Below are positions 27,506-44,273 of a DNA stretch of 64,000 bases, piece after piece. The stretch spans positions 96,001-160,000 of IMG/VR virus record IMGVR_UViG_3300014203_000012; one strand, written 5' to 3'. A program made the position numbers and the translations under genes. The notes under the pieces are model-generated. The model made no database searches. It was not told where the DNA came from and saw only the letters and a list, made by a program, of their open reading frames with translations. Origin of the DNA: a virus (Duplodnaviria > Caudoviricetes). Every line of letters begins with the position of its first letter. Position 1 is the stretch's first letter.

Positions 27506-28210
27506 CTATTTAAAATATTTAACTTCTCCGTCATATCGTTTTGATATTGTTTTGAATTGATGCCTATTAAATAACATATTTAGATACCGTAGTCGTATTT
27601 CCACTCTCGGTAAAACCGAATAATGTTTCTCTACAGTTCCTTTTATAACTAAAGCATCATCTAGCCAGATATTACTATTGGACATATCGCTATATTTCTT
27701 TCCTATATTGTCCCAGTCTGGTTTATACAAATGTCGATCCATACCTATTTCTGCTAAATAGGTTTCTACCGCATTATAATAACTTGGAGTTTTAAAAAAT
27801 GTAGTATATAATATATCGCACGGGGTATATATTATAGAATTTAAATTAACGAAATCTTGTTCAGTTAGAAGCCTATCCATAAACCTATTATCTTCTGCAC
27901 CATTTATAGAATACACATGGACAAAACTAGGATTAGATAATGCTGCATTTGCTAGATTATTTCTATTTATAAGTCTGAATCTAGGTCTAGGTGATCCTTC
28001 TGGTATTTCATAAAGTACTATAAATATTTCAGTATAGTATAATTCATTAAGCATTCTTTCATGTTTATCGATTATTTCATCGGCTTTCTTATCAGTTATT
28101 TTTAATTTATCATATAACCAATTTAATCTCTGGAGATAATCCTTTGGAATGTCTCCATATTTGTTTTCATACTCTAAAGCTTTTATTTCTCTTTTTTTAT
28201 TAGTTGTCAT
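27506..28210 (-). CDS. rusA: RusA-like Holliday junction resolvase
   Basis: SPRPRF, KPDWDNIGKKYSD and WLDDALV match the RusA KPD.DN..K...D and DD..V motifs. Confidence 0.8.
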   Translation of the reverse strand: MTTNKKREIKALEYENKYGDIPKDYLQRLNWLYDKLKITDKKADEIIDKHERMLNELYYTEIFIVLYEIPEGSPRPRFRLINRNNLANAALSNPSFVHVYSINGAEDNRFMDRLLTEQDFVNLNSIIYTPCDILYTTFFKTPSYYNAVETYLAEIGMDRHLYKPDWDNIGKKYSDMSNSNIWLDDALVIKGTVEKHYSVLPRVEIRLRYLNMLFNRHQFKTISKRYDGEVKYFK

Positions 28211-28275: not shown

Positions 28276-30126
28276 TTAATTTTTATTAAATAGATTTAGC
28301 ATTTTATTCGTTGCCCACTGGTCTAATCCGCCCGCAACGTCAGTGTATATCTTATCCATATATTTATCCCTAAAATATTGCGAGTAGTATAAATATAACG
28401 TTCGTTTTAAGTCTGGTTCGTTTATATTAATACCGCACAGATTAGCTACATAATCCATAAGCGTAATATTACTTAACAAACCTTTCTTAATATCATCATT
28501 TGTAGTAATAGCCATAGCACCATATAATTCCTTAATGGTAAAATGTACGTCTACAGATGTAGGCAATCCACTAGGAGTCCAGCTTCCTTCTTGCCCTTTA
28601 GTGATACTCATATTAGTTATTATACCCATATCACAATTAAATAGACCTTTATAGAAAGCTCTAACAAGAAATGGAGATACATATCCATTCGGCCCAACAG
28701 ATCTTGGAGATACATATCCGACTAAGTGTAGTATAGGAACTATAATATTTAGATATATACTATAATTATCACAATCAGGAGAGGTTAATTTAATGCTTAT
28801 ATCATAATCTCTAGAGAATTGCGAATCGTTCCATATCTCTGGAAATATAAGTTTACCACCAGCTATTACAGTCTTAAGTCCATTCGTAATACCGCCAATA
28901 AGACCATTACTATTTGCCATTTTAGAAACCATATCTTGTTTATTTTGTTCAGTTTTTGCAATTTGTTTATCCGCACTAAATGCATCTAACTCCATACCGG
29001 TCAAAGCTCCAGCTCCACCAAGTATAAAATTCATTTCTCTACCTATATCAGAGATACCATTTACTTTCCCTGCTATCATTGATTGCCCTGTACTATTTGA
29101 GAATGAATCAGATATTTGATTTTCTGAATTTATATAAAATGCTACCCCTCCTCGGTAGTTTAACATGCTATGAAGAGTTTCATTAGAATTGCTTTGCCAA
29201 TCATAGTTTCCTAGTGTTTTATCACCATAATATGTTTCATCTTGTAAATTAAGCAATTTTGCCGCTGCTCTACACATTGGATTTACATGTTTAAAATATG
29301 AGGTCCAATTCACATTTAATCCATAATATCTACCTGGATTGTTTATGAGAGAATCTAAATCAGTCTTGCTTGATCCATCTCCAGTAAATGTCGTAACTAC
29401 ATACTCTAAAATATTTTCCTTTTCTTTTTTACTATAACCGGATAAGAATTCTGGACTTCCAGGAACCATAACGAGTAAAGGTAATTTTGAAACTATTTTT
29501 TCTGCATATTTACGACCAAACGAATCAGAATTGTTGGGATCTATGCGCCTATCTGCGATTTCCATATATTGATATGGCATACCATATACTCCACGCAATG
29601 ACGTTATACGCAATCCATCTAATATAGAATCTGTATTTTTTGTAGTTCCAACAGTAGATTCTGTAGTACTAGAAGTGACATCTCTAGGTGGAGGGGTTGG
29701 AGTTATTGCTATCTCTGGTGGAACCATAATTGTGCCATTTGCGGTTACACTTATATCTGAAATATTTACCCAATATTGATTTTCCCCATTTGATATTTGT
29801 GCCGTAGTCCCTTTTATTGCAACTACTCCAAATGTAACACTAGTTACAGATATTGGTAGGAATCCACCATCTGTAGTTTTTACTTTATCTGTAGAATTAA
29901 ATTTTATATAAGATCCAACTTTTACATCAGTCTTGGTGGTTTCACCAACTTTTTCAACTGATCCGTCAGCGTTGAGTACCCACCCCACACTTGTATGATA
30001 CCAACTATTTGTTACTTCACTAACAACTAAACAACTTCCAGCGATTATACTGTCTAGTATAGGAGAGGTTATTGTACAATCTGAATGTGCATCTACTGTA
30101 TTATTAAATTTATATATATCTGCCAT
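28276..30126 (-). CDS. Baseplate tail-tube cap-like (T4 gp48-like) protein with N-terminal SH3-like domains
   Basis: C-terminal RDYDISIKL...MGIITNMSITKG...GLPTSVDVHFTIKEL. N-terminal WYHTSVGWV and QYWVNISDI, then a Pro/Thr linker. Confidence 0.55.
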   Translation of the reverse strand: MADIYKFNNTVDAHSDCTITSPILDSIIAGSCLVVSEVTNSWYHTSVGWVLNADGSVEKVGETTKTDVKVGSYIKFNSTDKVKTTDGGFLPISVTSVTFGVVAIKGTTAQISNGENQYWVNISDISVTANGTIMVPPEIAITPTPPPRDVTSSTTESTVGTTKNTDSILDGLRITSLRGVYGMPYQYMEIADRRIDPNNSDSFGRKYAEKIVSKLPLLVMVPGSPEFLSGYSKKEKENILEYVVTTFTGDGSSKTDLDSLINNPGRYYGLNVNWTSYFKHVNPMCRAAAKLLNLQDETYYGDKTLGNYDWQSNSNETLHSMLNYRGGVAFYINSENQISDSFSNSTGQSMIAGKVNGISDIGREMNFILGGAGALTGMELDAFSADKQIAKTEQNKQDMVSKMANSNGLIGGITNGLKTVIAGGKLIFPEIWNDSQFSRDYDISIKLTSPDCDNYSIYLNIIVPILHLVGYVSPRSVGPNGYVSPFLVRAFYKGLFNCDMGIITNMSITKGQEGSWTPSGLPTSVDVHFTIKELYGAMAITTNDDIKKGLLSNITLMDYVANLCGININEPDLKRTLYLYYSQYFRDKYMDKIYTDVAGGLDQWATNKMLNLFNKN

Positions 30127-30203: not shown

Positions 30204-33200
30204 TTATGAAATAGCTATGGCTCTCATAGCACTTATAATACTTTGAGTGTCTTTAGTCGCCATTATATCACCAAATCCATTATTACTTCCATTACCCATT
30301 GAGGATAATTTAGATAATATTGAAGCTGGAGATAGACTAGATTTTTGGTTAGATGCGGTAGTAGTGTTTGTTTGAGCTTGAGTTGATGGTGTCTGCCCAG
30401 TAAGAGCTCCAGCGATAGAAGCTAGTAATGAAATAATCATATCTAATTTAGGACTATAATCAGGAGCGCAAGCTTGTGATATTTGCGATTTATCTTGTTG
30501 TGCTTGAGCTACTGATACAGGATTTGAACTATTTGCTTTGATAATATTAGGGTCTATAATATTTTTATCTATAGAATCGGTTATAGACTCTATATTAGTT
30601 TGGTCAGTTCCTCTACCCCAAATGGGACTACCAGTACCTACCCCACCATTAAGATGTTTTAGAGCAAAGTTTTTTCTGGCTTGTTTTAATTGAGATAATA
30701 GTTCTTGACCTCTACTATTTTTAGTTTTAATAATAGAATTATCCTGAGATGAGGATTCTTGGGTATCCGTTTTATTATTAAAACCATCAATGAAATTAGT
30801 TGAGATACCATTTAATGGATTATCTGTATTTTTAGTAGCCTCTTTTACAAGAGCATTTGCATAACTAGGATTAACTTCACTTATAGGTTGTTTACCACTT
30901 AGTGTTTTAGCAGTTAAATCAGATTGAGCTATCCCTTCAGGTGAAGGAAGATTAATTGCAGGGCTAGTACTATTTGGTTTGAGTTGAGCTTGTGCCGCAT
31001 CCCACATTTCTTTTATTTTCTGGGCTTTAGCTTTAGCCACATCCATTGAATCGTCGTCTGTAATTTTATTATAGTCTTGTATAAAGTCTTCTGGTACAGC
31101 TTTAATGGAATCTTTAATCTGATCTAGCATAGTACCAGTTCCAAATTTACGAGGACCTGTTTTACCAGTTCCAAATTTGTTTAGTCCAGATTTACCACTA
31201 GCGCTTCCAGGACCCGCTTCGGCTGCAGTATCTACACCGTTTGTTTTATTGCCAGTTACTACAGAACCATCACCAGCCCCAGTTGCAACGTATCCAAATA
31301 TATTTTTATCTCCCCATGTATCCGCCATAGGTCCGTGTTTTACTTTTAGTGTACTAGACGAGTTACCGAAATAACCACCTTTACCATCAGCAATAACAAC
31401 ATGATCTGGATCGCTAGGATCGCTATCAGTATTTATAAGACCAATATCACCCTCAGCTCCACCTTTAGATGCATCTTTCCATAACCCAGATGCTTTAGCT
31501 TGTTCCATAAGGGTTGGTGTCCAAAGAGGCATACTATTAGCGAATTCATTTCCAGAGTGTTCTATATAGTCTTTAGCAAATGCAGTACAGCCATTAGGAC
31601 CATAGCCTTGCGGTTGATCTGATTCGACTAAACCTTCAGCCCAAGTAGAAGCTTTTTGTATTCCAGCATTTGTACTATTTGATACGAATTTTTCTCCAGT
31701 GTATCCGTCGGATTGTTTCTTATCTTTCTTATCCTTAGAACCAAATATACTGCTAAATGGATTATCATCACCAAATATCATTTTAAGTTTATCAGCGCCA
31801 AAGAAACTTCCAGCTTGAGATGTAATAGCCCCAGCTAAAGGTCCAAGAGCCTGTTGCATTTTACCAGTCATTGATTTAGCCGCGCTTAGAACCCCACCTA
31901 ACATTCCATCACTACTTGCGGTTTGAGCTGCAGCCGCAACTTTATTACTATTATTAATTGGAGTAGCTCCAGGAGCGGATTCTCCAGAAAGCGAAACTCC
32001 AGCGGTATTAACTGATGGTTTAGTAATCTCTGTTGTAGTAGTAGGTGCAAGTCCAGGAGCTGCACTATTATCCAATTCAATTCCTCTACCCCATTTACCT
32101 TTACCTGTGTGTGGTGGAGTAGTAGCATCAGAACTATTAAGATTGAAAGCATTGCTCATTGTTTCAGCTAATTCACTAAGTTGGCCAAAGAAACCAGTAT
32201 TCTTTTTCTTAGTATCTTTATTATTAGTTTTGCTATTAGTCGCAGAACCACTAAATGGTTTTCCCTGACCTATAGTATTAAAAATATTTTCGCCATAGGA
32301 TACACGCTTACCCATTTCAGAACCACCGCTAACTTCAAAATCGGTATCCCAAATTTCAGCAGCTTCTTTAATACTTTTTGATGAGTTAAGTTTATCAACT
32401 ACCCCCCTTTCATTCATTTCCTGCCACATGAAATTAAGTTGGGTATCTAATAAATTTGGATCTCCTAGAGCTGACATTCTAGCGTATCTATCATTTTTAT
32501 CCCACTGACAAATACCTCGGTGTGTTCCATTATCTGCAGTAGGGTCAAAACTAGATTCTTGCTGAATATTTCCCATAATACCAGCTATAGCTTCGGAGCT
32601 CATTTTTTTATCTTTTAAGAAGTTCCATATTTTTTGGGCATTATCCTCTGTGCCACGACCCCATTTACCAGTACCTAGTTTACCCATTGCAGATTTGAGG
32701 ACTTTATTTCCTCGTCCAAATTTACCTTTACCTGCAGCGATAGCCATGGAAGATTTACCTAGTACACTACTGGCTTTATACATTTTGTCTGGTGTTGTAG
32801 ACTCTGGATCTTGTACAGTTATATTTCCTTTACCATCCATGCCAGTACCGACGACATAATGATTATACTGACCGTATGGATTGTCATTGTTAACACCTTT
32901 ATTATCTTTACCCATTAGCAATACTGGATTGCCCTGAGAAAGATTAGATTTTATATCAGTTGGAGATTGAACTTGTTCAGTGCCTATACCATATTTGCCA
33001 AGAATATCTCCAAAATAGCCAGGTTCTGTTCCTCCATCTTTTTCTTTATATCCCTTGGATAAGGCATATTTAGCCGCGCTCTTAGGATCTATGTTGACTC
33101 CTAGTGCACTTGCCATATTAGTCGCAGAAACAGGACCACATCCACTGTCCTCCATAGTCTGAGGGGTGCTGTCTTGAGAAGTATTGAAGTTCATGGCATT

Positions 33201-36200
33201 AGCCGGATCTAATTGTGAGTGAAACCCATCAGCTAAAGTTCCAGCACCTCTACCAAACTTAGGACCGGTTTTACCAGTAGCAGAATTTTTATCCATCCAA
33301 GTAGCTACTGTATTTTTGGCAGAGTTGTATGCATTCCCAACTTTATCCGATATATTCTGAGCCCCATTCTTAACTGAGTCCCAGGCATTGTTAGCCATCT
33401 TTTTAGTAGAATCCCATGCATTAGCTGCAAAATTCTTAACAGAATCCCAAGTATTACTAGCTATATCTTTAGCAGAATTCCAAGATTTCTGAAAAAATCC
33501 TCCAACTCCAGATGGTCCTTTATTCTCACTAGGATCTTTATTGTCTTGACTTTCGTTAGTAGAGTCACTTCCACCATTTCTTAATTTTTCTACATCCGCT
33601 CTGGTAAATCCGCATGGAGGTCCGATAATACCTAATGCCATATCTAATACATCATCTGTTTGTATCACATACCCAAGTATAGGAATCATATTAACCACGG
33701 CATCTACGAAGCCAGCAACAAATTTCATCCCAGCAGTAGATCCTGATTTGATTTGGTATAATTCGTCGGAACCGCTCCACCCATGCCAAAACCATGATAT
33801 TGCTTCTCCAACAGCTAAAACAACATCCCCAATACCAGCAGTCGCAGCTCCTACTGTAGCATATGCTGCAGCCATACTAAGTTTAGCTCCAAGTTTCTCT
33901 ACTATTTTAGCAATATTTTTAGGAGCAGCCATCTTCTCTAATAGTTTACCACAAAATTCCTGCACAGCAGTATATGCTTTACTACTAGGAATAAACTTTC
34001 CTACTTTCTCTACTAAAGATTTTAATGCGTCTTTAGCTTTAGCTATAAAAGCTTGAGCTTTTTCCACAATTTCTGGATTATTAGCTATATCCCTTACAAT
34101 GCGCAATCCACCACCAATAAGACCAGACGCGGTATTACTAAATGAAGGAGCATTAGTAGTAGTAGTATTAGGCGCATCTGAATTATCTGGAGTTGCAGCT
34201 TCTGCTTTAGATGATGAAAATAATGAAGTGCCAATAGCAGCAGCTCCAGCTGCTAATGCTAATTTACCTTTATGCTTAGATATAAAAGATCCAGCTCTAC
34301 TTAACGCTCCAGGTTTTCCACCAGCCGCAGCCGCTCCTTTAGCTTTTGTGGCTTTACCGTCGCTACGATCTCTGATTTCTTGCGCAGCATCAGCTATTGG
34401 ATTTCCTGAAGAATCACCAACTCCTGCTCCGCCTTTTAGTAGATCTATTATCTGTTGAAGATAGCTAACCATAGTAGTTCTATGGGTATTCATGGCAGCT
34501 AATAAATCCGTAGGTTCGTCTACTGCGTTTCCGTCACCGTCAACTGCAGAAGATGAGTCTCCACCACCAAATAATCCACTTATCTTCCCACCTGCTTTGC
34601 CTAGTAGTGATTTACCTTTAGTTAATCCTTTACCAAGGAATCCACCAATTTTGCTATTACCAAATCTAGTGCTTAGTGCACCTAGTTTACCAACCATTGC
34701 TCCACCTAATTTAGTTCCAATTATCTTATCTTTTATTTTAGATGCGAATCCACCTAGCTTATTACCAGCCCAGCCAGCAGCTCCACCTAATTTATTACCA
34801 GCCCAGCCAGCAGCTGCTCCAAGTTTATTCCCAACCCAACTAGCAGCTCCACCTAGTTTACCGCCCATCCAACTTCCAACTCCACCTAAACCTAAAAGTT
34901 GTAATGGTAAACCTAATAAGCTACCAAAGCTTTTGAGCATGGTCATAGGCAATTTAACTAGATCTAGTAACCCACTTAAAGCTCCAGCCAGTCCACCTTT
35001 AGCTATAGATTTGGCCGCTTCAGCACCAACCTTAAGTTTACCACTAGCAACGCCAGCCATTATCTTAAGATTAGTTAGAATACCTTTTTGAGTATTATCT
35101 CTATCCGATATCTTTTCTTGAATGGCTTTATTATCTTTGCTATTAGCCATAACCATAGACCCATCGGTAGATTTGGTATAGCTTTCTATACCATACTCGG
35201 TGTTTACTTGAGTTGGACTTTTAGAATCTTTAGGTACTGGGGTGCTAGTTGCAGCGAATTTATTTTCATTAGCTGGTACGACTTGTTCACCTTTCGATAA
35301 AACCGCTACTCCACCTTTAGTAATACTCGTAGCACCATCAGCAAAACCATTAGGTAATATTGAGGGGTGTCTGAGAGTTTTGTACTTGTCCGCAATAGAG
35401 GCGCCAATAGATGATATTCCCGCACCAATAGCATTTTTTGTAGATCTGATACCGCCAGCTATATCATTAGCGGCCATAGAAATACCAGTTTTAGCGATAG
35501 ATTTGCCACGACTAAATTCTTCACCTATAGGTGAAATTACTTTACCCACATCGTCTTTATATTTCTGATAATTAGTTCTAGGGTCGTAATTATTTCCGTT
35601 TACTTTAGATACGTTATCAGCAGCTTTTTCATCATCTTCATTTGTTGAGTCATACATTTTATCTATAGCTTTATCTTTAGCACTGCCTAGATATTGTGAT
35701 TTCTTAGGAGCCATCTTTTTCAAAGTGTCTTGACTTACATTATTGAATCCACCTTTAAATAGTTCTACCATAGCTTTAATTACTTCAGGATCTTCATTCA
35801 TAATAGCATCCATATTAGTAATCTTCATTCCAGTTTGAACAAATGCTAGTATATTACCAAAACCCTCATCGGACATTTTAGCTAATTTATCATAGTCTTT
35901 AATCTCATATCCCGATTGTCCTAGTTCGATAAATCGTTTAAACGTATTAGCATCATAACTTAGTATTTTATCTAGATCTTTAAACTTATACCCATTATAA
36001 GCAAGCTTTTTAATGTCTTGGAATCTGTTAGGGTTATCAGCAAGAACATTTTTATTAGCTTCAGATATCTTTTGACCATCATACGCTTTAGATATTGATT
36101 CGTTAGTAGTATTAACAAGTTCATTATTCTGACCAGTATATATTTCACTAGCTTTATCGCCAATTTTATTAGCTCGATCTAGTTTCTTTTGTTGCTTAGG

Positions 36201-39200
36201 ATTTATACCCATAGCATTGTCTCTGATTTGCGCTAGTATTTCTACTTGCTCTTTCATAAACATTGCAAGTTTATCTGTATTAGCATCTAGTGAAGAATTA
36301 ATAGAGTCAAATTGATTACCCTCTTTAATAGTACCATCTTTGCTTTCATCTCTAGATTGTATTTCAGTTTGTAGAACTGAACGGTATTTATCTAGATTAT
36401 CTGCATTGATCCCTTTGATACCATGATCTTTTTCTAATTTTGCATATAGTTCATTTTCATTTCCAGTATAGTTTTCTTTTCTAGCCTTCATTTCTCTAAC
36501 TTTATTAGATTTAACATTTACTTCTTTAGAGAGTTTTGCTTTTTCAGCTGTACTTAAATCAGATTCCTGGATAAGACGTTGAGCTTTTTCCATATCTCCA
36601 GCGTGAGCAGCTTTAAGAATAGCTTTAGATTTTGAAACTCCTAGTTTATCAGTAACTGTAGAGCCTAGATCTTTTACATATTCAGCATGACGTTCATCTA
36701 AGAACCCTTTACCTTTTTTAAGTTCTCCCATGAGATTATGTGCTTTTTCTAAGTCATCTTTACTAGAATTAGATAGGTTTTCATCATATCCCTTTAACTT
36801 ATAATCTTTACCACGTTTAGCCATGAACTCAAGACGTTCATCTGCAGTCATGTAGTCAGCATTAGATTTTTCTATTTGATGCTGTCTTACTTTATCTCCA
36901 ACCCAGCCAATTGCTTTAGATGGAGCAGATATTACTTTAGCTCCTATATTAGCAGCTTTCTTAGCTGCCCACGTTACTGGTTTTAGTATTGCTTTTACTG
37001 GAGCCATGAGTTTTTTAACAAGTGGTATGCCTAAAGCAGATTTTATCGCCCAACCAAAAGCCTTTCCTATACCTTTAAACGTATCTTTTATAGCCAAACT
37101 TATTTGTTTACCAATAGGAGCTATAGAACGTTTGATTGGATCGAGCATATCTTTCTTCATAAAATCAAAGAATTTAGTTTTAAAAGTAGAAGCGAAACCT
37201 GCTAACGGATCTATCAATGTTTCTCTTAAAGCCCCAGATAAACCGCCTTTACGTACGCCTTTAGAATCTGCTTTTCCAAGCATGAAATCTTTAAATTCAT
37301 CTGTGGTTGATACTAATCCCAGTCCTGTACCAAGAGCAGCATTACCTAGTAGACCGAATGGTCCTAAAAACATAGTTCCAATTGCAGCAGCAGCTACATT
37401 AGGGAAAGCTTTTTGTATAAGTTTTTGGCTGTCTCCATTGATTAAGCCATCTTTCTCACCGAATAATGCATTTTGTATACCTTCATTATTCTTAGCAAAA
37501 CTAATAGCTGAACCCATCATAAGACCACCAAGTGGTCCAAGTGGAGTTAACATGCCAAGCACCGTACCAGTTATACCATAAGTCTTAGCATCAGGTAAAT
37601 ACTTCGACATGCTTTCTTGTAATTCATCAGAGAATAATCCGCCGCCTCTTTTGCCGGTGTCGTTCCCTTCTGCATCGTATACTTTTTCACCAAATAAGCC
37701 CTTTTGGAAAGTTTCACTATTGGATACAACAGATAATGCCGAACCTGCAATAGCTCCTAATAATGGACCACCTATTCCAGTAAGTAAACCTACTGTACCA
37801 CCAAGTAACCCACCAGCTATACCTTTAGGTAAATGCTTTTTAACTTCTGCATTTACTTTTGAAATTTTCATTCCAGCTTCTTTAGTATCAAATAATTGGT
37901 TAGCAAAATCGCCTATACCATTTTTAAAGTTATTTACACCTTTAGAAATAGCACCTTCTTGGCCAAAAGCAGGAGTACCATTAGCATTTTCAGCAATATC
38001 ATTTTTATCAAAGACTTTTCCAAGTCTTTGTTTGATATTTCTTTCATTTACTTCATCCTTACGTCTATCTGCTTTATCTTTATTAGGATTGAATGGATTC
38101 TCATCAGATGGGATAATTGCTTCTCCCTCTGATACTATACTTAATCCACTCTTAGTAATATTTCTAGCACCTTGGGCAAAGTGATTAACTTTGACTTGTC
38201 TTTCATCTAATTTAGGATTGCTTTTGAGATCGAATCCAAAGTTATTATAATAATCTTCTCCTCGTTCGGACGTTCCTCTTTCTGCGTCAGATAAGAATTT
38301 ATTCCCGATAGGCGTGAAATTTTCCAAAGGTGTATCCGTAGCTAAAGTTGGTAATATAGATGGAGAATGGTATTTCAGATTAGCTGTATATGATTCTACT
38401 AAATTTTTCTTTTTATACGATTCTAAGTAGGGAGCAATAGAAGGATTTGCTTTTGATGCGGATGCTACAAATTTAGTAAAACTCTCACTAATAGCTTTAA
38501 GACGTTCTACCGAATTGGTATCGAGTATAGCCTGTACGGTAGTGCTTATTTGCTCTTCTGGGATAGACATCTTCCCAAGCGTATCAGAAAAAATCTCTGT
38601 ATATCTTCCGTATAATGCACCCTTAGATGCGATTATATCATTCATTTTATTAGTAAGATCAGAGGTGTCTTTACCTACAGTAGCTCTTTGGTTTATCTGG
38701 ATTCGTATAGATTTTAAAGGATCACCTTTACCTAATCCTTTAACAGCTGTCATATATTCGGCCGATAACTCATCTACTTTTTTATATGCGACTTTAGCTT
38801 CTGGATCTGAAGTCGCCAACCCTAAAAGAGTAGCTAAAGAATCTAACGCTTGAGTAAAAGATTTTCGTTCAGTCGCATTACCAGTGAATGCTTTCTTATT
38901 AGCTTCAGCTTGCGATAATATAATATTTGGATCACTTATAGCTTTGTCTTTTGTAGTTCCAAACTGTTTCCAACTTTCATCTTGCTCTCTTTGTAAAGAT
39001 GATCGTTTTTGTTCTAATTTTTCTCTACCAGTCTTCATTGAAGAGGTTGCGTGTTCTAAAGCCATACCTTTACTAAAAATAGCATTAGCTCTTTTATTTT
39101 TAAGAAGATGCGAATACTTTGGATCACTTAGATCTAGTTTGGATAGGATTGTATCGCTAGGAAGTTCTAATATAGATTTGATAGTATTGAGATCTTCAAT

Positions 39201-42200
39201 TTTACCATTACGCTGAGCAAGTAACTCACTATCATCTTCATTATAGTTTTGAATAGCGAGATCAGTTTCCTGTATCTTACCTTTTCTTTCGGTATAAGAT
39301 TGTATTTTATTATTAAATACTTTTTTAGTTTTAGAATCTCTAAGTTTTATAGAATTTAGGTAGTCTAATCTTTCTTGTAGTTCAGATATTTTTTTAGGAT
39401 TTGTTTCTTCCTTTAATTTATTGGCTATAGTTTGACGCTCTTTAGTGTTAGCGTCTATACGTTTTACAGATTTATTATTTTTAACAGTATGCTTAAATGC
39501 TGTTACCTCGTCTATAGCATCAACACCAGTAGTTCTCTTAGCACTAGCTATTTTTTGATCTGTAGTTTGTTCACCTAGAATTTTATTATTATAGAATTGA
39601 TCTGCATCTTTATAGGACTTTTTCATGTCCTTTTTTACTTCTTCGTATGCTTGGTTATATGCATTTTTAACCGCATCTATAGTAGGAGTTAGTATACCTT
39701 CCTTACCAACAAAATAATCACTGATACCTTTGGTTATACCATCGATATCTACACCCATTCCCTTTAAAGCATTTTTACTAGCTTTCCACATGGATTCGCC
39801 ACCAAATTTATCTTTAAAAGGTTTTAGAAGAGTATTGTCCATCCAATCGTTTATTTTACCGAAAGTGCCTTGCAGTTCCCAACTCATACGATTAAAGAAA
39901 CCTTTAATCTTATTTCCATTTTTGTCTTTAACGTCGGATTCTTGACCATAGAAGAAGTTATAAATATTCTCATCTGCTTTACTTATTACTCCAGTGAGTA
40001 TATCCGCAGGCTTAGCAGTTAATTTATCTATACCGTTTCTAATAACGTCATATTTAGCTCCCAAAGAACCAGCTCTGATAAGTTGATTTAAGAAAGTAGT
40101 TTTATTATCTTTATCAGCAGTTTCTTCTAAATTTTTCTTAGAATCTTTTGCACTAGTAGCGATCATATCTGTTAGCCAGGTAGAATTATTTTCCATAGAT
40201 CTTTTATTATCTCTTACATTTCTATTACTAGCATTAACACGAATAGCCCCAGACGCCTCTGATGTATCGTCCATATAACGATCTACTCTCCCAATCATCT
40301 TACCTTGAGATTTAGCTTGATTATATCTAGAATTTTCAATACGCTCAAAAGAGTCATTCATTGATTTGGTTCTATCCTGTTCTATTTTAGCATTAGATTT
40401 TTCTTTAGGCCCTAGAGTTCTTTCAAATTGTTTTTTTAACTCTTCGTCTGATACGTTGGAGAAATCATCTTGGCGACCATTCGCTTTATTCTTTCCACTT
40501 TTTCCACCGCGAGAAGATCCGCAACCAAAACCATTAGTTTTTCTAATAGCAAATAGCTCACCTTGTATTCCTCTTAAATAGTCAAAGATATTCTTTTTAA
40601 ACGGATCTGTTACTTTAAGAATATTAGACTGATCTCCTAGATTGCCATATTTTTCTTTAATAATACCAGTTTTATCGTCAGTTTTAATATGAGAATCCGC
40701 ATTGTATCCATTAAATAGATTTCCGTATAGTGAGTTACCATCTTTTTCTATACCTTCCATTTGACGATTATGCATTTCTCTTTGAGATTGTATATTGTTA
40801 GCAGACTTCATTGCAGTTCCACGTTTAAGATTGGAAAACATGGTTTTAAAAAGTTTCATATTAGCTTTACTTTCTATACCATATTTAGTGTTATCAGATT
40901 CGTCCTTAGAATTTGGGTCGAAGTGCCCAAAATCATCATATATTTTTGTAAATATGGTTTCCATATCTTTATGCATAGCTTCTTTATCTTCTCTAGATTT
41001 AAAAGATAAAGCTTCCATCATTTTCTTCATCTCGTCAGACATATCAGACGTGGCCGATTGAACGTTAGTTTTTTTAATATTATTAAACTGCGTTTGTACT
41101 GCTTTAGCATTAGTCCATTTACCACTTTTAAGATCATAGAATCGTTCATTAGTTCCACCAATCAATGCTTCTATTCTTCTCAAGTGACCAGGTATAACTT
41201 CGATTAAGCTTTTATTAGCTATTCCATTCCATTGCATATTTCCTTGTTCATATTTAGAAGTGTCAATAGTACTTTTAACAGTATTCTTTAATCCAAATAT
41301 TTTACCAAGGAACTGCTCTAATGGATTTGCATTATCATCATTAGCATTTTTATTAAACTTAGCAGTCATAGTGGCGAAAGCGCCAGATAAAGTATCATCG
41401 AATTTCTTCAATGCTGTAGTTAATTTTGGTCCCATCGCACTAGCTATTAAGAACTGTGGTATGATAGCTAATGGATTATTCGCAAACATTTTAAGATTCT
41501 CTTCTGAAAGCATACCAAGCATACCACCAGATGCTTCATTAGCAGCATTTACAAAGTTACCACCAACAGCTTTACCATAAGCTTTAAGATCTGGAGTTCC
41601 ACTAGCGTTTACAACATCATCAAATCTATTTGCTTTCTTCTCTTTTTCTTCCTTCAATTCAACTTTATACTTTTCACGTTGCATTGTAAGCATTTCTTTA
41701 AGAATAGCATTCTGTTCTTGTAAAAGACCAGTCGTAGATTCGAAGTATCTCTTAGAGTTTTCAGCATGTGCACTTACTACTTCAGTATTGAATTTGTATA
41801 AAGCGTCAATACCATTAGACAATCCGCCAAAGCCAGATTGTATACTATTCATAAGTCTAATAGATTGAGTGTATTGCATATTAGCATTGCTCTTAGCAGT
41901 TCCTGCAATATATTCAGCAGAATTAGCAACAGCATTGGTTACAGCATATGCATTCTTTTCGGATGCAGAGTTGACTGCTTTGATAACCATTTGATCGCCA
42001 TCTGTTATTGTAGGAGTTGCATTGGTATCTGTAGTATTATCGAATTCTGACATATCTTCCGTGTCGCCAAAATCACCAAAAGAAGAATCTTCTCTTTTCT
42101 TGTTATACAGATTACCAGACTTGATATCTTCCATTGCATTACCAAATGCTAAATCGCTAAGTCTATATACAGTACTACCCTGGATTAGGTCTTTAGCACG

Positions 42201-42368
42201 TTTTACTGTGGTCTTATAATCTCTAACCGAGTGGAATACTTCTTTATAGAGTTCTTGATTAGACTCAGCAAAACTTGATAATGCTGGCGCTTTCTCTGAC
42301 ATATGCTGTATAGCAGCATACGAAACAGACTTGCCTAAGTTCTTTATATAATCAGCAACAGGATTCAT
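30204..42368 (-). CDS. Giant tape measure protein / tail-associated lysin with C39-like peptidase, phage tail lysozyme and NlpC/P60(CHAP)-like domains
   Basis: Start at ATG 42368 (AGGAGG RBS), about 4054 aa. Gly-rich hydrophobic helices and 11-aa W repeats. DSGCGP...HYVV...VQDP (about 33230-32760), AIAGIMGNIQQES...GICQW (about 32640-32280), NGCTAF...DHVVI (about 31660-31290). Confidence 0.8.
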   Translation of the reverse strand: MNPVADYIKNLGKSVSYAAIQHMSEKAPALSSFAESNQELYKEVFHSVRDYKTTVKRAKDLIQGSTVYRLSDLAFGNAMEDIKSGNLYNKKREDSSFGDFGDTEDMSEFDNTTDTNATPTITDGDQMVIKAVNSASEKNAYAVTNAVANSAEYIAGTAKSNANMQYTQSIRLMNSIQSGFGGLSNGIDALYKFNTEVVSAHAENSKRYFESTTGLLQEQNAILKEMLTMQREKYKVELKEEKEKKANRFDDVVNASGTPDLKAYGKAVGGNFVNAANEASGGMLGMLSEENLKMFANNPLAIIPQFLIASAMGPKLTTALKKFDDTLSGAFATMTAKFNKNANDDNANPLEQFLGKIFGLKNTVKSTIDTSKYEQGNMQWNGIANKSLIEVIPGHLRRIEALIGGTNERFYDLKSGKWTNAKAVQTQFNNIKKTNVQSATSDMSDEMKKMMEALSFKSREDKEAMHKDMETIFTKIYDDFGHFDPNSKDESDNTKYGIESKANMKLFKTMFSNLKRGTAMKSANNIQSQREMHNRQMEGIEKDGNSLYGNLFNGYNADSHIKTDDKTGIIKEKYGNLGDQSNILKVTDPFKKNIFDYLRGIQGELFAIRKTNGFGCGSSRGGKSGKNKANGRQDDFSNVSDEELKKQFERTLGPKEKSNAKIEQDRTKSMNDSFERIENSRYNQAKSQGKMIGRVDRYMDDTSEASGAIRVNASNRNVRDNKRSMENNSTWLTDMIATSAKDSKKNLEETADKDNKTTFLNQLIRAGSLGAKYDVIRNGIDKLTAKPADILTGVISKADENIYNFFYGQESDVKDKNGNKIKGFFNRMSWELQGTFGKINDWMDNTLLKPFKDKFGGESMWKASKNALKGMGVDIDGITKGISDYFVGKEGILTPTIDAVKNAYNQAYEEVKKDMKKSYKDADQFYNNKILGEQTTDQKIASAKRTTGVDAIDEVTAFKHTVKNNKSVKRIDANTKERQTIANKLKEETNPKKISELQERLDYLNSIKLRDSKTKKVFNNKIQSYTERKGKIQETDLAIQNYNEDDSELLAQRNGKIEDLNTIKSILELPSDTILSKLDLSDPKYSHLLKNKRANAIFSKGMALEHATSSMKTGREKLEQKRSSLQREQDESWKQFGTTKDKAISDPNIILSQAEANKKAFTGNATERKSFTQALDSLATLLGLATSDPEAKVAYKKVDELSAEYMTAVKGLGKGDPLKSIRIQINQRATVGKDTSDLTNKMNDIIASKGALYGRYTEIFSDTLGKMSIPEEQISTTVQAILDTNSVERLKAISESFTKFVASASKANPSIAPYLESYKKKNLVESYTANLKYHSPSILPTLATDTPLENFTPIGNKFLSDAERGTSERGEDYYNNFGFDLKSNPKLDERQVKVNHFAQGARNITKSGLSIVSEGEAIIPSDENPFNPNKDKADRRKDEVNERNIKQRLGKVFDKNDIAENANGTPAFGQEGAISKGVNNFKNGIGDFANQLFDTKEAGMKISKVNAEVKKHLPKGIAGGLLGGTVGLLTGIGGPLLGAIAGSALSVVSNSETFQKGLFGEKVYDAEGNDTGKRGGGLFSDELQESMSKYLPDAKTYGITGTVLGMLTPLGPLGGLMMGSAISFAKNNEGIQNALFGEKDGLINGDSQKLIQKAFPNVAAAAIGTMFLGPFGLLGNAALGTGLGLVSTTDEFKDFMLGKADSKGVRKGGLSGALRETLIDPLAGFASTFKTKFFDFMKKDMLDPIKRSIAPIGKQISLAIKDTFKGIGKAFGWAIKSALGIPLVKKLMAPVKAILKPVTWAAKKAANIGAKVISAPSKAIGWVGDKVRQHQIEKSNADYMTADERLEFMAKRGKDYKLKGYDENLSNSSKDDLEKAHNLMGELKKGKGFLDERHAEYVKDLGSTVTDKLGVSKSKAILKAAHAGDMEKAQRLIQESDLSTAEKAKLSKEVNVKSNKVREMKARKENYTGNENELYAKLEKDHGIKGINADNLDKYRSVLQTEIQSRDESKDGTIKEGNQFDSINSSLDANTDKLAMFMKEQVEILAQIRDNAMGINPKQQKKLDRANKIGDKASEIYTGQNNELVNTTNESISKAYDGQKISEANKNVLADNPNRFQDIKKLAYNGYKFKDLDKILSYDANTFKRFIELGQSGYEIKDYDKLAKMSDEGFGNILAFVQTGMKITNMDAIMNEDPEVIKAMVELFKGGFNNVSQDTLKKMAPKKSQYLGSAKDKAIDKMYDSTNEDDEKAADNVSKVNGNNYDPRTNYQKYKDDVGKVISPIGEEFSRGKSIAKTGISMAANDIAGGIRSTKNAIGAGISSIGASIADKYKTLRHPSILPNGFADGATSITKGGVAVLSKGEQVVPANENKFAATSTPVPKDSKSPTQVNTEYGIESYTKSTDGSMVMANSKDNKAIQEKISDRDNTQKGILTNLKIMAGVASGKLKVGAEAAKSIAKGGLAGALSGLLDLVKLPMTMLKSFGSLLGLPLQLLGLGGVGSWMGGKLGGAASWVGNKLGAAAGWAGNKLGGAAGWAGNKLGGFASKIKDKIIGTKLGGAMVGKLGALSTRFGNSKIGGFLGKGLTKGKSLLGKAGGKISGLFGGGDSSSAVDGDGNAVDEPTDLLAAMNTHRTTMVSYLQQIIDLLKGGAGVGDSSGNPIADAAQEIRDRSDGKATKAKGAAAAGGKPGALSRAGSFISKHKGKLALAAGAAAIGTSLFSSSKAEAATPDNSDAPNTTTTNAPSFSNTASGLIGGGLRIVRDIANNPEIVEKAQAFIAKAKDALKSLVEKVGKFIPSSKAYTAVQEFCGKLLEKMAAPKNIAKIVEKLGAKLSMAAAYATVGAATAGIGDVVLAVGEAISWFWHGWSGSDELYQIKSGSTAGMKFVAGFVDAVVNMIPILGYVIQTDDVLDMALGIIGPPCGFTRADVEKLRNGGSDSTNESQDNKDPSENKGPSGVGGFFQKSWNSAKDIASNTWDSVKNFAANAWDSTKKMANNAWDSVKNGAQNISDKVGNAYNSAKNTVATWMDKNSATGKTGPKFGRGAGTLADGFHSQLDPANAMNFNTSQDSTPQTMEDSGCGPVSATNMASALGVNIDPKSAAKYALSKGYKEKDGGTEPGYFGDILGKYGIGTEQVQSPTDIKSNLSQGNPVLLMGKDNKGVNNDNPYGQYNHYVVGTGMDGKGNITVQDPESTTPDKMYKASSVLGKSSMAIAAGKGKFGRGNKVLKSAMGKLGTGKWGRGTEDNAQKIWNFLKDKKMSSEAIAGIMGNIQQESSFDPTADNGTHRGICQWDKNDRYARMSALGDPNLLDTQLNFMWQEMNERGVVDKLNSSKSIKEAAEIWDTDFEVSGGSEMGKRVSYGENIFNTIGQGKPFSGSATNSKTNNKDTKKKNTGFFGQLSELAETMSNAFNLNSSDATTPPHTGKGKWGRGIELDNSAAPGLAPTTTTEITKPSVNTAGVSLSGESAPGATPINNSNKVAAAAQTASSDGMLGGVLSAAKSMTGKMQQALGPLAGAITSQAGSFFGADKLKMIFGDDNPFSSIFGSKDKKDKKQSDGYTGEKFVSNSTNAGIQKASTWAEGLVESDQPQGYGPNGCTAFAKDYIEHSGNEFANSMPLWTPTLMEQAKASGLWKDASKGGAEGDIGLINTDSDPSDPDHVVIADGKGGYFGNSSSTLKVKHGPMADTWGDKNIFGYVATGAGDGSVVTGNKTNGVDTAAEAGPGSASGKSGLNKFGTGKTGPRKFGTGTMLDQIKDSIKAVPEDFIQDYNKITDDDSMDVAKAKAQKIKEMWDAAQAQLKPNSTSPAINLPSPEGIAQSDLTAKTLSGKQPISEVNPSYANALVKEATKNTDNPLNGISTNFIDGFNNKTDTQESSSQDNSIIKTKNSRGQELLSQLKQARKNFALKHLNGGVGTGSPIWGRGTDQTNIESITDSIDKNIIDPNIIKANSSNPVSVAQAQQDKSQISQACAPDYSPKLDMIISLLASIAGALTGQTPSTQAQTNTTTASNQKSSLSPASILSKLSSMGNGSNNGFGDIMATKDTQSIISAMRAIAIS
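33300..33490 (-). repeat. 11-aa tape-measure repeats (WDSVKN...)
   Basis: WNSAKDIASNT/WDSVKNFAANA/WDSTKKMANNA/WDSVKNGAQNI. Confidence 0.75.
34740..34880 (-). repeat. 33-nt tandem repeats (GNKLGGAAGWA)
   Basis: TTATTACCAGCCCAGCCAGCAGCT recurs with 33-nt period. Confidence 0.8.
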
Positions 42369-42395
42369 ATCCCATTCCTCCTTTCTTTTAACATT

Positions 42396-42407
42396 TATAT
42401 CTATGTT
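42396..42407 (-). promoter_or_regulatory. Late-type promoter AACA-N6-TA
   Basis: Minus-strand AACATAGATATA, 28 nt before the tape measure start. Confidence 0.6.
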
Positions 42408-42430
42408 TTCACCTACACTTCTTATACGAG

Positions 42431-42470
42431 ACAAACCATAGAGACTACCACATTGTGGTAGTCTCTTATA
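42431..42470. repeat. Direct repeat copy 1, containing a terminator hairpin, flanking the RCC1 gene
   Basis: ACAAACCATAGAGACTACCACATTGTGGTAGTCTCTTATA. Confidence 0.85.
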
Positions 42471-42471
42471 T

Positions 42472-43602
42472 CTATTTTTCACCATATGCCGATTTGGTAT
42501 CAGTTAAGAACATTGTAAATTTTGTTCTTGGAATGATTTCTAATATATTATCCCATAATAAAGATATATTAGATAGATTAGGTATTAGTGTAGGAGTGGT
42601 ACATGTCGTAATATCACCTAAACCTAATTGAGGGTTATTACCATATGCTTTTACAGTACCGTCATCTAGTAATACCATTGAATAATAATACCCACTTGCT
42701 ATTTGTTTTACATTAGTTAGATTAGGTATTAACGTAGGACTAGTACGATTAACTGCATCACCTAACCCTAATTGTCCGCCAACATTATATCCAAAGGTAT
42801 ATACTGTACCATCGGTTATTAATATCGATGTGTGGTGGGTTCCACCAGATATTTGTTTTGCGTTAGATATACCAGGTATTAAAGTAGGAGTAGATATTGG
42901 ATTTGTGGTATTGCCTAAACCTAATTCACCGAGACTATTATAACCAAATGCTTTTATTGTACCATCATTTAATAATGCAAACGAATTATAACTACCTCCT
43001 GCTATTTGTTTTACGTTACTTAGACTAGGTATTAATTTAGGCATTAAACTATTACCAACATATCCTAATTGACCGGAATCATTCAGCCCAAATGATTTTA
43101 CTGTACCATCATTTAGTAATGCTAAAGAATGATATATACCACCTGCTATTTGTTTTACATTAGTTAAATTAGGTATTATTGTAGGAGTTTTATATGGTGT
43201 TGTAGTATTTCCTAACCCTAATTCACCTTGAGCATTATATCCCCACCCTTTTACAGTTCCATCATTTAATACTGCCAGCGAATGATTATTACATCCTACT
43301 ATTTGTTTTACATTCGTCAATCCAGGTATTAACGTAGGAGTAGATATCGGGGTTGTGGTATTGCCTAAACCTAATTGACCATCCGTATTATTACCAAATG
43401 AATATAATGTACCGTCATTTAGTAAAACTAAAGAATAATCATACCCACATGATGTTTGTTTTACGTTAGTTAAATTAGGTATTAACGTAGGGGTGTCGAG
43501 ATTTGTGATATTACCTAAACCTAATTGACCGGTAGTGTTATAACCAAATGATTTTACTGTACCATCGTTTAATAAAACTAAAGAATGTAGATTTACACTC
43601 AT
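42472..43602 (-). CDS. RCC1/BLIP-II-like 7-bladed beta-propeller protein
   Basis: Seven repeats of HSL.LLNDGTV..FG.N..GQLGLG...TPTLIP.L.NVKQI. ATG 43602 after GAGGTG; late promoter AACA-N6-TA at 43655-43666. Confidence 0.9.
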   Translation of the reverse strand: MSVNLHSLVLLNDGTVKSFGYNTTGQLGLGNITNLDTPTLIPNLTNVKQTSCGYDYSLVLLNDGTLYSFGNNTDGQLGLGNTTTPISTPTLIPGLTNVKQIVGCNNHSLAVLNDGTVKGWGYNAQGELGLGNTTTPYKTPTIIPNLTNVKQIAGGIYHSLALLNDGTVKSFGLNDSGQLGYVGNSLMPKLIPSLSNVKQIAGGSYNSFALLNDGTIKAFGYNSLGELGLGNTTNPISTPTLIPGISNAKQISGGTHHTSILITDGTVYTFGYNVGGQLGLGDAVNRTSPTLIPNLTNVKQIASGYYYSMVLLDDGTVKAYGNNPQLGLGDITTCTTPTLIPNLSNISLLWDNILEIIPRTKFTMFLTDTKSAYGEK

Positions 43603-43692
43603 TATACTCACCTCTTATTTCTTTTACACAATATTCATATATTTGATTTAGTATTATAAAGGTGTTGTATATATTCAGCTCCCATATATTAA

Positions 43693-43742: not shown

Positions 43743-44273
43743 TTATTTAACCCAAGGTGGGCAAGGAGCATATACTTTTAAGCTTTCATAACCTTGAACG
43801 AAAGCTTCACCGCGCCCAAAGATTTTATTGCCATCTGCATCCACACCAATTTGTTTAGGATATGGACGACTGCCAGCTTCAACTTCTTTTAAACTAACTG
43901 CAACGTCAGACTTTTCTCTGCCGCCTAATTGAAGCTTGCGACCGCAATGAACATAAGTGTTGATAAATTCTTTTGAAACGTCAACAAGGTTTTCTGCTTC
44001 TGCACGTTTGAATTCATATTTTTCCATAAGAGTAGCAGCTTCATTTTGTGGGATTTTTGCTGCGCCTGACATCGCCGAAGCAACCATTGCTCGAACTGCC
44101 TTAGAAGGATTGAAAGAATCAGATTTTCCTTCTTTTGAATAAATGCCAACTTCGTATGAAGTGTCATTCATCATTGCCCTCATTACACGAGCCTCATCTT
44201 TACGACTACTCGTTACTTGAGTGATTGTGCCTTTAATTTCCTCGATTAGTGCTTTTACTGTTTCCTTTTCCAT
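43743..44273 (-). CDS. Divergent HU/IHF-like DNA-binding protein with an N-terminal extension
   Basis: AENLVDVSKEFINTYVHCGRKLQLGG...SLKEVEAGSRPYP...GEAFVQGYESLKVYAP aligns by eye with HU helix 2, GDKVQL.G and the arm. Codons suggest high expression. Confidence 0.45.
   Translation of the reverse strand: MEKETVKALIEEIKGTITQVTSSRKDEARVMRAMMNDTSYEVGIYSKEGKSDSFNPSKAVRAMVASAMSGAAKIPQNEAATLMEKYEFKRAEAENLVDVSKEFINTYVHCGRKLQLGGREKSDVAVSLKEVEAGSRPYPKQIGVDADGNKIFGRGEAFVQGYESLKVYAPCPPWVK

Follow-up and report, generated by a model that had tools for sequence, protein, structure and literature searches.

Introduction

Several phage tail proteins with a C-terminal wall hydrolase are cut by proteolysis during assembly or infection, at a Gly-rich site or near the C-terminus; examples are Tal of the lactococcal phages Tuc2009 and TP901-1, gpH of lambda, which is converted to H*, and pb2 of T5. 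Each of these is known to be cut once, and they are not known to contain a repeated aromatic-Gly-Arg-Gly sequence or a built-in cysteine peptidase, which distinguishes them from the protein described here. This protein, P0001, is a giant tail protein of 4093 amino acids (aa), encoded on the minus strand (30204..42485) of a 64,000-nucleotide stretch of a phage genome (IMG/VR record IMGVR_UViG_3300014203_000012, positions 96,001 to 160,000; Caudoviricetes). The whole stretch is called the window in the following, and the gene is its largest open reading frame (ORF). The C-terminal part of P0001 carries a C39-like peptidase module, wall hydrolase modules and further segments, which are fenced by copies of a short linker motif.

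The C39 enzymes characterised so far, such as leader peptidases and two toxins, Cpe1 and StbD-CT, have Gly-Gly as their cleavage site (PMC12136450; preprint 10.64898/2026.05.07.723447). StbD-CT (CdiA-like toxin, Citrobacter rodentium) and Cpe1 (PDB 8ssk/8ssm, 9l5u) have a papain-fold C39-type domain within a larger delivered protein, as P0001 does; the folds are similar (Z 11.6-12.5), with a marginal resemblance at the sequence level (E 0.39). Both toxins cut at Gly-Gly (LHAGG|KF in GyrB/ParE), with one site and one released domain, whereas the candidate site of P0001 is aromatic-Gly-Arg-Gly, present in seven repeats in a phage tail protein with wall hydrolases. StbD-CT cuts itself in cis in a flexible linker at Gly158, 25 aa before Cys183, and this cut is required after delivery (preprint 10.64898/2026.05.07.723447); it is the closest mechanistic precedent for a self-processing tail protein. 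The double-glycine leader peptidases of PCAT/AMS transporters (ComA PEP, PCAT1, LahT150; PF03412) share the fold (Z 12.5-13.5) and the Gln/Cys/His/Asp arrangement with P0001. In contrast to them, the Pfam match of P0001 is to PF13529 and not to PF03412, no ABC exporter domains were found in the protein, and it has neither an amphipathic leader nor Gly-Gly. In addition, C39-like domains are commonly annotated as wall hydrolase domains of lysins (PMC3314691; preprint 10.64898/2026.04.25.720813).

Viral polyproteins with papain-like proteases offer a further comparison, since they combine several enzymes in one chain, a repeated short site and an embedded papain-fold protease, as proposed here for P0001; P0001 is, however, a virion structural protein of a DNA phage and not a replicase, and its specificity is predicted. 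Staphopains cut P2-Gly|Ser/Ala, with an aromatic P2 residue in staphopain B (PMC13750125), and this preference (aromatic-Gly in staphopain B) matches the [FWY]-G|[RK]-G of the P0001 candidate sites. The orthologs from cultured phages, AR9 gp203/PBS1 gp95 and JD-Fnp1 gp176, are shorter than P0001 (1925 and 3026 aa) and have no C-terminal motif copies, and the C39-like domain of JD-Fnp1 gp176 is a different one of bacterial type. The known kinds to which this locus belongs are tail lysins and self-cleaving delivered proteins. For the linker motif itself we found no published description, and a full-text literature search for its spellings yielded nothing about phages.

We propose that the papain-fold C39-like peptidase of P0001 recognises the motifs in its own protein and cleaves there, a reading to which we give close to, though not quite, an even chance.

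Results

The linker motif and the modules it fences

P0001 contains seven copies of [FW]G[RT]G, starting at aa 3077, 3256, 3275, 3465, 3771, 3781 and 3956. All of them are located within the last 1020 residues, and the first 3076 are free of the motif. In 20,000 shuffles of the C-terminal 1033 aa there were on average 0.05 copies and never more than 2, compared to the seven observed; the occurrence is thus not random. The six linker peptides that an earlier note on this DNA had quoted are all present in the ORF (30204-42485, minus strand), each within 1-2 bases of where it had been placed. A six-frame scan of the genome, a single contig of 183,919 bp with 33% G+C, revealed one further [FW]G[RT]G outside P0001. 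This hit, KIFGRGEAF, is located in a 176-aa ORF (43743-44273, minus strand) without a known family, two genes upstream of the giant gene, and is probably due to chance. The Arg codon varies among the motif copies (AGA, CGA and CGT). Since the Arg codons differ, selection acts on the peptide, and the synonymous differences between copies ruled out a repeat at the DNA level or a recombination hotspot. Judged from the sequences of P0001 and its relatives, the motif is a family-wide, selected peptide. Gly-Gly is present at the core of none of the seven copies.

For the structural analysis, aa 3040-4093 were modelled with AlphaFold2 (AF2) using an input alignment of 18 relatives, and the resulting blocks were compared to known structures with VIA-align, which reports Z scores. 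AF2 modelled four blocks with confidence (aa 3080-3253, 3279-3411, 3598-3737 and 3785-3836). In line with cleavable linkers, all seven motifs lie at the edges of folded modules, in stretches with a predicted local distance difference test (pLDDT) score below 50. The coordinates given below are all on the minus strand.

Motif 1 (FGRG, aa 3077-3080, 33246..33257, pLDDT <50, in the context GKTGPKFGRG) directly precedes the C39-like papain-fold peptidase module (aa 3081-3255, 32721..33245) and lies 39 aa upstream of its catalytic Cys. The module was assigned by Pfam and by its fold: Peptidase_C39_2 (PF13529) matches aa 3112-3227 with 34.8 bits (cut-off 24), and its fold matches PeiR (Z 14.5), ComA PEP (13.4), Cpe1 (12.5) and StbD-CT (11.6), with the PeiR, ComA and PCAT1 peptidase domains at Z 13-14.5. 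The catalytic residues Gln3109, Cys3116 (33138-33140), His3209 (32859-32861) and Asp3226 are present in this order and are invariant in alignment A1. Motif 2 (FGRG, aa 3256-3259, 32709..32720, in the linker context AAGKGKFGRG) begins two aa past the last strand of the module, so that the peptidase is fenced on both sides. Just upstream of motif 1, aa 3001-3044 (33354-33485) consist of four tandem 11-residue units with a fixed Trp in each (SWNSAKDIASN/TWDSVKNFAAN/AWDSTKKMANN/AWDSVKNGAQN), modelled by AF2 as one helix with low confidence.

The linker motif 3 (WGRG, aa 3275-3278, 32652..32663, context GTGKWGRG) directly precedes the first helix of a phage tail lysozyme module (aa 3279-3411, 32253..32651), which was identified by Pfam (Phage_lysozyme2, PF18013, aa 3281-3403, E 8e-29) and by its fold (gp13 of phi29, 3csq: Z 17.5, rmsd 1.8, 129 residues). 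In PHROGs this lysozyme gave the sole match of P0001, to a family of unknown function. Lysozyme and the following module are separated by a 186-aa low-confidence stretch (aa 3412-3597), and the linker motif 4 (WGRG, aa 3465-3468, 32082..32093, context GKGKWGRG) is located inside it. The next module (aa 3598-3737, 31275..31694) was assigned to the NlpC/P60 fold by structure comparison, with Cys3633 in NGCTAF and His3695 in DHVVIA. It matches the C. difficile autolysin Acd24020 (Z 13.3, rmsd 2.2, 117 residues); the block (model residues 558-699) reached Z 13.3 to 7cfl and 12-13 to 4xcm, LytE and CwlO, and RipA matches as well. A Pfam search of aa 3469-3770 gave no PF00877 match at E <= 1, and phmmer searches of the C39-like and NlpC/P60 modules against the PDB sequences gave marginal matches only.

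Motifs 5 and 6 (FGTG twice, aa 3771-3774 at 31164-31175 and aa 3781-3784 at 31134-31145; together 31134..31175, in the context KFGTGKTGPRKFGTG) separate the NlpC/P60 module from a small helical module (aa 3785-3836, 30978..31133), and motif 6 ends two aa before the next helix. The helical module has a confident AF2 model and no family match. Motif 7 (WGRG, aa 3956-3959, 30609..30620, context GTGSPIWGRG) precedes the C-terminal tail segment (aa 3960-4093, 30207..30608), which is kept as one piece family ('P') in the relatives P0002 and P0004. No wall-binding domain was recognised in the C-terminal 1000 aa. Pfam, AF2 and fold comparison thus agree with the earlier note, according to which the linkers separate a C39-like, a lysozyme and an NlpC/P60-like module and terminal segments. 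In the single-chain AF2 model no linker was docked onto the peptidase, and the linkers had pLDDT values of 25-35; a complex prediction with the C39-like module (aa 3081-3255) and the linker aa 3443-3487 (score 0.09, mark 0.32) is evidence neither way.

Distribution of the motif in relatives

A first homolog set was collected with a word-seeded search using the C-terminal 1144 aa and comprised 59 proteins of 2577-5691 aa (60 including P0001). Because a word-seeded search could favour motif carriers, a second search used the N-terminal 601 aa, where the motif is absent, with 1.84 billion cluster representatives as targets, and gave 1127 clusters at E <= 0.001; ortholog counts from this unbiased set refer to the 127 full-length proteins among the best 150 of the 1127 clusters. 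A scan of viral contigs with the C-terminal 1144 aa found no relative.

The 60 proteins of the first set contain 132 [FW]GRG, compared to 3.7 expected, and nearly all of them are in the last 40% of the proteins. The consensus in this set is G-[KR]-G-[KR]-[WF]-G-R-G, often in tandem, and if Tyr and Lys are allowed, 58 of the 60 proteins have several copies. Among the 127 unbiased orthologs, the last 40% of the protein contains at least two [FWY]G[RK]G in 38 cases and no copy in 62. A looser motif is nine times denser in their C-terminal part than in their N-terminal part (0.85 vs 0.09 per 1000 aa). On this sequence evidence, the motif, as [KR]-[FWY]-G-[RK]-G, extends to many members of a large family of giant tail proteins from AR9-like jumbo phages, where it is confined to the C-terminal part.

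The enzyme domains do not by themselves bring the motif along, and this too favours a reader specific to this family. Ordinary tape measure proteins and those of Herelleviridae with the same PF18013 lysozyme are without it, and so are secreted bacterial proteins with C39_2 and lysozyme2. Three bacterial proteins that look secreted (P0066-P0068, 643-799 aa) have Phage_lysozyme2, C39_2 and Amidase_2 and no motif; the lysozyme2/C39_2 pair therefore also exists as an ordinary wall hydrolase.

Cassettes between the motifs

The 60 proteins were cut at the motifs, and the pieces were clustered at a reciprocal coverage of at least 70%. The pieces fall into discrete families, each of which is consistent in length, and proteins differ in how many pieces they have and in what order. 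In several relatives the motif ends a few residues from the start of the lysozyme domain. P0003 has a glucosaminidase in the slot of the P0001 lysozyme: the identity between the two proteins is 73-93% in the peptidase, drops from 83-93% to 13-23% right after motif 3 (aa 3275), returns to 60-80% in the NlpC/P60 module and falls again after motifs 5/6 (3771/3781). The left borders of the replaced segments are located at motifs, whereas the right border of the first one (about aa 3411) is not. The earlier note's alternative, that the linkers could be module-shuffling junctions, fits the left borders, as in the exchange of lysozyme for glucosaminidase in P0003, and does not fit the first right border. 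In another group of relatives (P0014-P0016 and P0028), two or three tandem modules of about 166 aa, with unassigned fold, are each preceded by an identical GKGKWGRGFG.

Linkage of the motif to the C39-like module

The C39-like profile finds the module in all 60 proteins of the first set and in 116 of the 127 unbiased orthologs. Cys and His are intact in every one of these 116, and the module is the best-conserved part of the C-terminus (the 73-93% identity to P0003 given above); both are consistent with an active enzyme on which processing depends. The module is moreover bracketed by the motif at preferred distances: [FWY]GxG is present at most 80 aa upstream of the catalytic Cys in 69 of 111 orthologs, with a mode at 32-36 aa, and 125-175 aa downstream in 57 of 111, compared to a background of about 4-5% in both cases. 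The spelling of the linkers also follows the clade of the peptidase, which would be expected of sites and the enzyme that reads them: K[WFY]GRG occurs with DSGCGP, [RK]YGMG with S/TSGCGP, and a third C39 clade with EAGC[GA]P pairs with Arg-rich G[RK]G-HIY linkers. Within one protein the aromatic residue is more uniform (0.62) than in shuffled data (0.39), likewise in favour of a dedicated reader.

All 38 orthologs with at least two motifs have the C39-like module, and the 11 orthologs that lack it have one strict motif or none (Fisher p = 0.03, not corrected for phylogeny). These patterns fit one co-evolving reader in the same chain, although they are confounded by common descent. In these sequence comparisons the association of motif and module is real, but not exclusive. 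A dead C39 domain that we had considered in the CHAP-type relatives (Cys replaced by Arg, 'YGRG' for 'SGCG') was rejected: the YGRG lies about 20 aa after an intact DSGCGP.

The giant gene and its surroundings

The N-terminal 430 aa of P0001 match AR9 gp203, PBS1 gp95 and gp176 of the Fusobacterium phage JD-Fnp1 (E 3e-7 to 2e-6), and tblastn against AR9 gp203 gave E 7e-7 over 429 aa. The gene order giant protein, virion protein (28276-30126), RusA resolvase (27506-28210) is the same here and in AR9, PBS1 and JD-Fnp1. Because of the N-terminal match and the shared gene order, P0001 is assigned as the giant tail protein of an AR9-like jumbo phage and, by the same comparison, as orthologous to AR9 gp203, which is labelled 'tail tape measure protein'. 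This label is taken from the AR9 entry, itself only an annotation, and is supported by synteny; searched as a whole, P0001 matched no tape-measure family in Pfam (e.g. PF10145) or PHROGs. Megablast against cultured phages gave no match to this DNA, and among cultured phages we found no carrier of the motif. For 30204-34000, one public run contains the stretch, a landfill metagenome (72% of the sampled words) that is probably the source sample; no RNA run was listed for it.

Translation of P0001 probably starts at Met40 (42366-42368), a start supported by the alignments of all homologs, which set in at this residue, and by the overlap of the first 39 codons of the ORF with the upstream RCC1 gene. 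The homolog alignments begin there with the sequence MNPVADYIKNLGKSV, and the 39 codons (42366-42485, minus strand) overlap the end of the RCC1-repeat gene (42472-43611).

Two further features of the part before the first motif were observed. A second 11-residue repeat, with Trp and Gly (SWMGGKLGGAA/SWVGNKLGAAA/GWAGNKLGGAA/GWAGNKLGGFA), is located at aa 2538-2582 (34740-34874, minus strand) and resembles the repeats with regularly spaced aromatic residues that have been described in tape measure proteins. Between aa 1555 and 1731 (37293-37823, minus strand) there are Gly-rich hydrophobic segments, GIAGGLLGGTVGLLTGIGGPLLGAIAGSAL and two similar runs, which are highly conserved in the alignment of relatives. 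These segments are candidates for membrane insertion after ejection.

Discussion

The arrangement of the C-terminal part of P0001 resembles that of a self-processing polyprotein: a protease is present in the same chain, and repeated sites are located in accessible linkers between folded units. In the mechanism that we propose, [KR]-[FWY]-G-[RK/T]-G would be a short linear recognition site in disordered linkers, which the C39-like peptidase would read and cut, either in cis or within a trimer. The C-terminal quarter would be carried in the tail as a single chain, and its modules would fold after expulsion at the cell envelope. The peptidase would then excise itself at its two flanking sites and afterwards cut the remaining linkers, and the peptidase, the lysozyme, the NlpC/P60 enzyme and the C-terminal segments would result as separate proteins. 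In this way soluble wall hydrolases would be set free at the position of the tail tip. The likeliest scissile bond would be aromatic-Gly | Arg-Gly, so that P2 is aromatic and P1 is Gly, the pair that staphopains prefer; this bond is favoured because Pro follows the second Gly in 35 of 466 motif instances, which makes the next bond unlikely as a universal cut. As the same fence is found on every module, modules could therefore be gained, lost or replaced between phages without disturbing the processing.

Taken further, a large clade of jumbo-phage tail 'rulers' may consist of true polyproteins, in which an embedded papain-fold peptidase, with a specificity for aromatic-Gly in place of the Gly-Gly at which C39 enzymes cut, would excise itself and a variable set of wall enzymes after ejection at a co-evolving linker code, the same code serving as the joint for cassette swaps. 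We give this extension somewhat less than an even chance.

Several points weigh against processing by the C39-like module. The characterised C39 enzymes cut at Gly-Gly, which the motif does not contain, so that the argument of the earlier note, that C39 peptidases cleave leaders with a Gly motif, fits only loosely. C39-like domains are routinely read as wall hydrolase domains of lysins, and since the best fold match is the wall isopeptidase PeiR, the intact catalytic residues could serve wall cutting alone. Tandem copies such as KWGRGKWGRG, found in 45 of 466 instances, are unusual for protease sites, and in the AF2 model the lysozyme helix begins at the last Gly of motif 3, leaving little room on the primed side. 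Two orthologs without the C39-like module (P0084 and P0125) keep four or five linkers similar to K-F-G-[MI]-G, and conversely, in 78 of the 116 orthologs that have the module, at most one strict motif is present. Shared ancestry confounds the association tests, and the 5-residue words through which the first homolog set was collected may include the motif itself. Finally, cleavage itself, the responsible enzyme, the bond and its timing are what we infer from the motifs and modules observed. The link to the C39-like domain that the earlier note had drawn is thus plausible in view of the fixed-distance bracketing and the clade-linked spelling, and is weakened by the relatives that retain similar linkers without the module.

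An explanation that we consider unlikely, but which accounts for some of these points, is that the motif is an uncleaved docking peptide. Each wall hydrolase module would carry a cationic-aromatic tag (Lys/Arg and Trp/Phe/Tyr with a Gly turn), which at the entry site holds it on the membrane or on anionic wall polymers, or which during assembly places it on a protein of the tail or baseplate, and which would stand in for the cell-wall-binding domains that P0001 lacks. The composition of the motif, basic and aromatic, agrees with this, as does the failure to recognise a wall-binding domain in the C-terminal 1000 aa; the tandem copies would provide avidity, and retention of the motif in P0084 and P0125 would require no peptidase. 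The uniform aromatic residue within a protein fits any single reader and hence also a docking partner. However, the motif is missing where the same enzyme domains occur in ordinary lysins and tape measure proteins, and the fixed-distance bracketing of the C39-like module would be left unexplained. With a reader in the tail tube, motifs would be predicted throughout the first 3000 aa, which contain none, and apart from the one probable chance hit no other protein of the genome carries the motif.

It is improbable, in our view, that the motif has no dedicated reader and is a favoured flexible joint, inherited together with the modules, that marks safe junctions for domain exchange. Such a joint would account for the discrete piece families with their differing order among phages and for the left borders of the replaced segments. 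It has no need of a core, aromatic-Gly-x-Gly preceded by Lys/Arg, that stays invariant over hundreds of diverged proteins; in addition, the synonymous differences between copies speak against exchange driven by homology at the DNA level, and the replaced lysozyme segment ends away from a motif, at about aa 3411. We give slightly less credence still to cleavage by another protease, from the phage, another hydrolase module or the host envelope, with the C39-like module as a third wall peptidase: the motif without Gly-Gly, its Lys/Arg at two positions that would suit a trypsin-like enzyme, the wall isopeptidase as best fold match, the listing of C39-like domains among the catalytic domains of lysins and the motif-like linkers in orthologs without the module would all agree with it, but it turns the bracketing of the C39-like module and the clade-linked spelling of the linkers into coincidence, and an enzyme carried along in the same protein would agree with the confinement of the motif to this single protein of the genome.

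If self-processing by the C39-like peptidase is true, it would add a C39-like peptidase with a new specificity, and the linkers would be natural portable junctions for building multi-enzyme lysins. It would also help to interpret hundreds of giant phage proteins that lack annotation: as a rule, their modules could be found by cutting the sequences at the motif. For the phages themselves, such a processing code would explain how several folded wall hydrolases can be transported in a tail as a single thread-like chain, to be released at the cell surface and not before.

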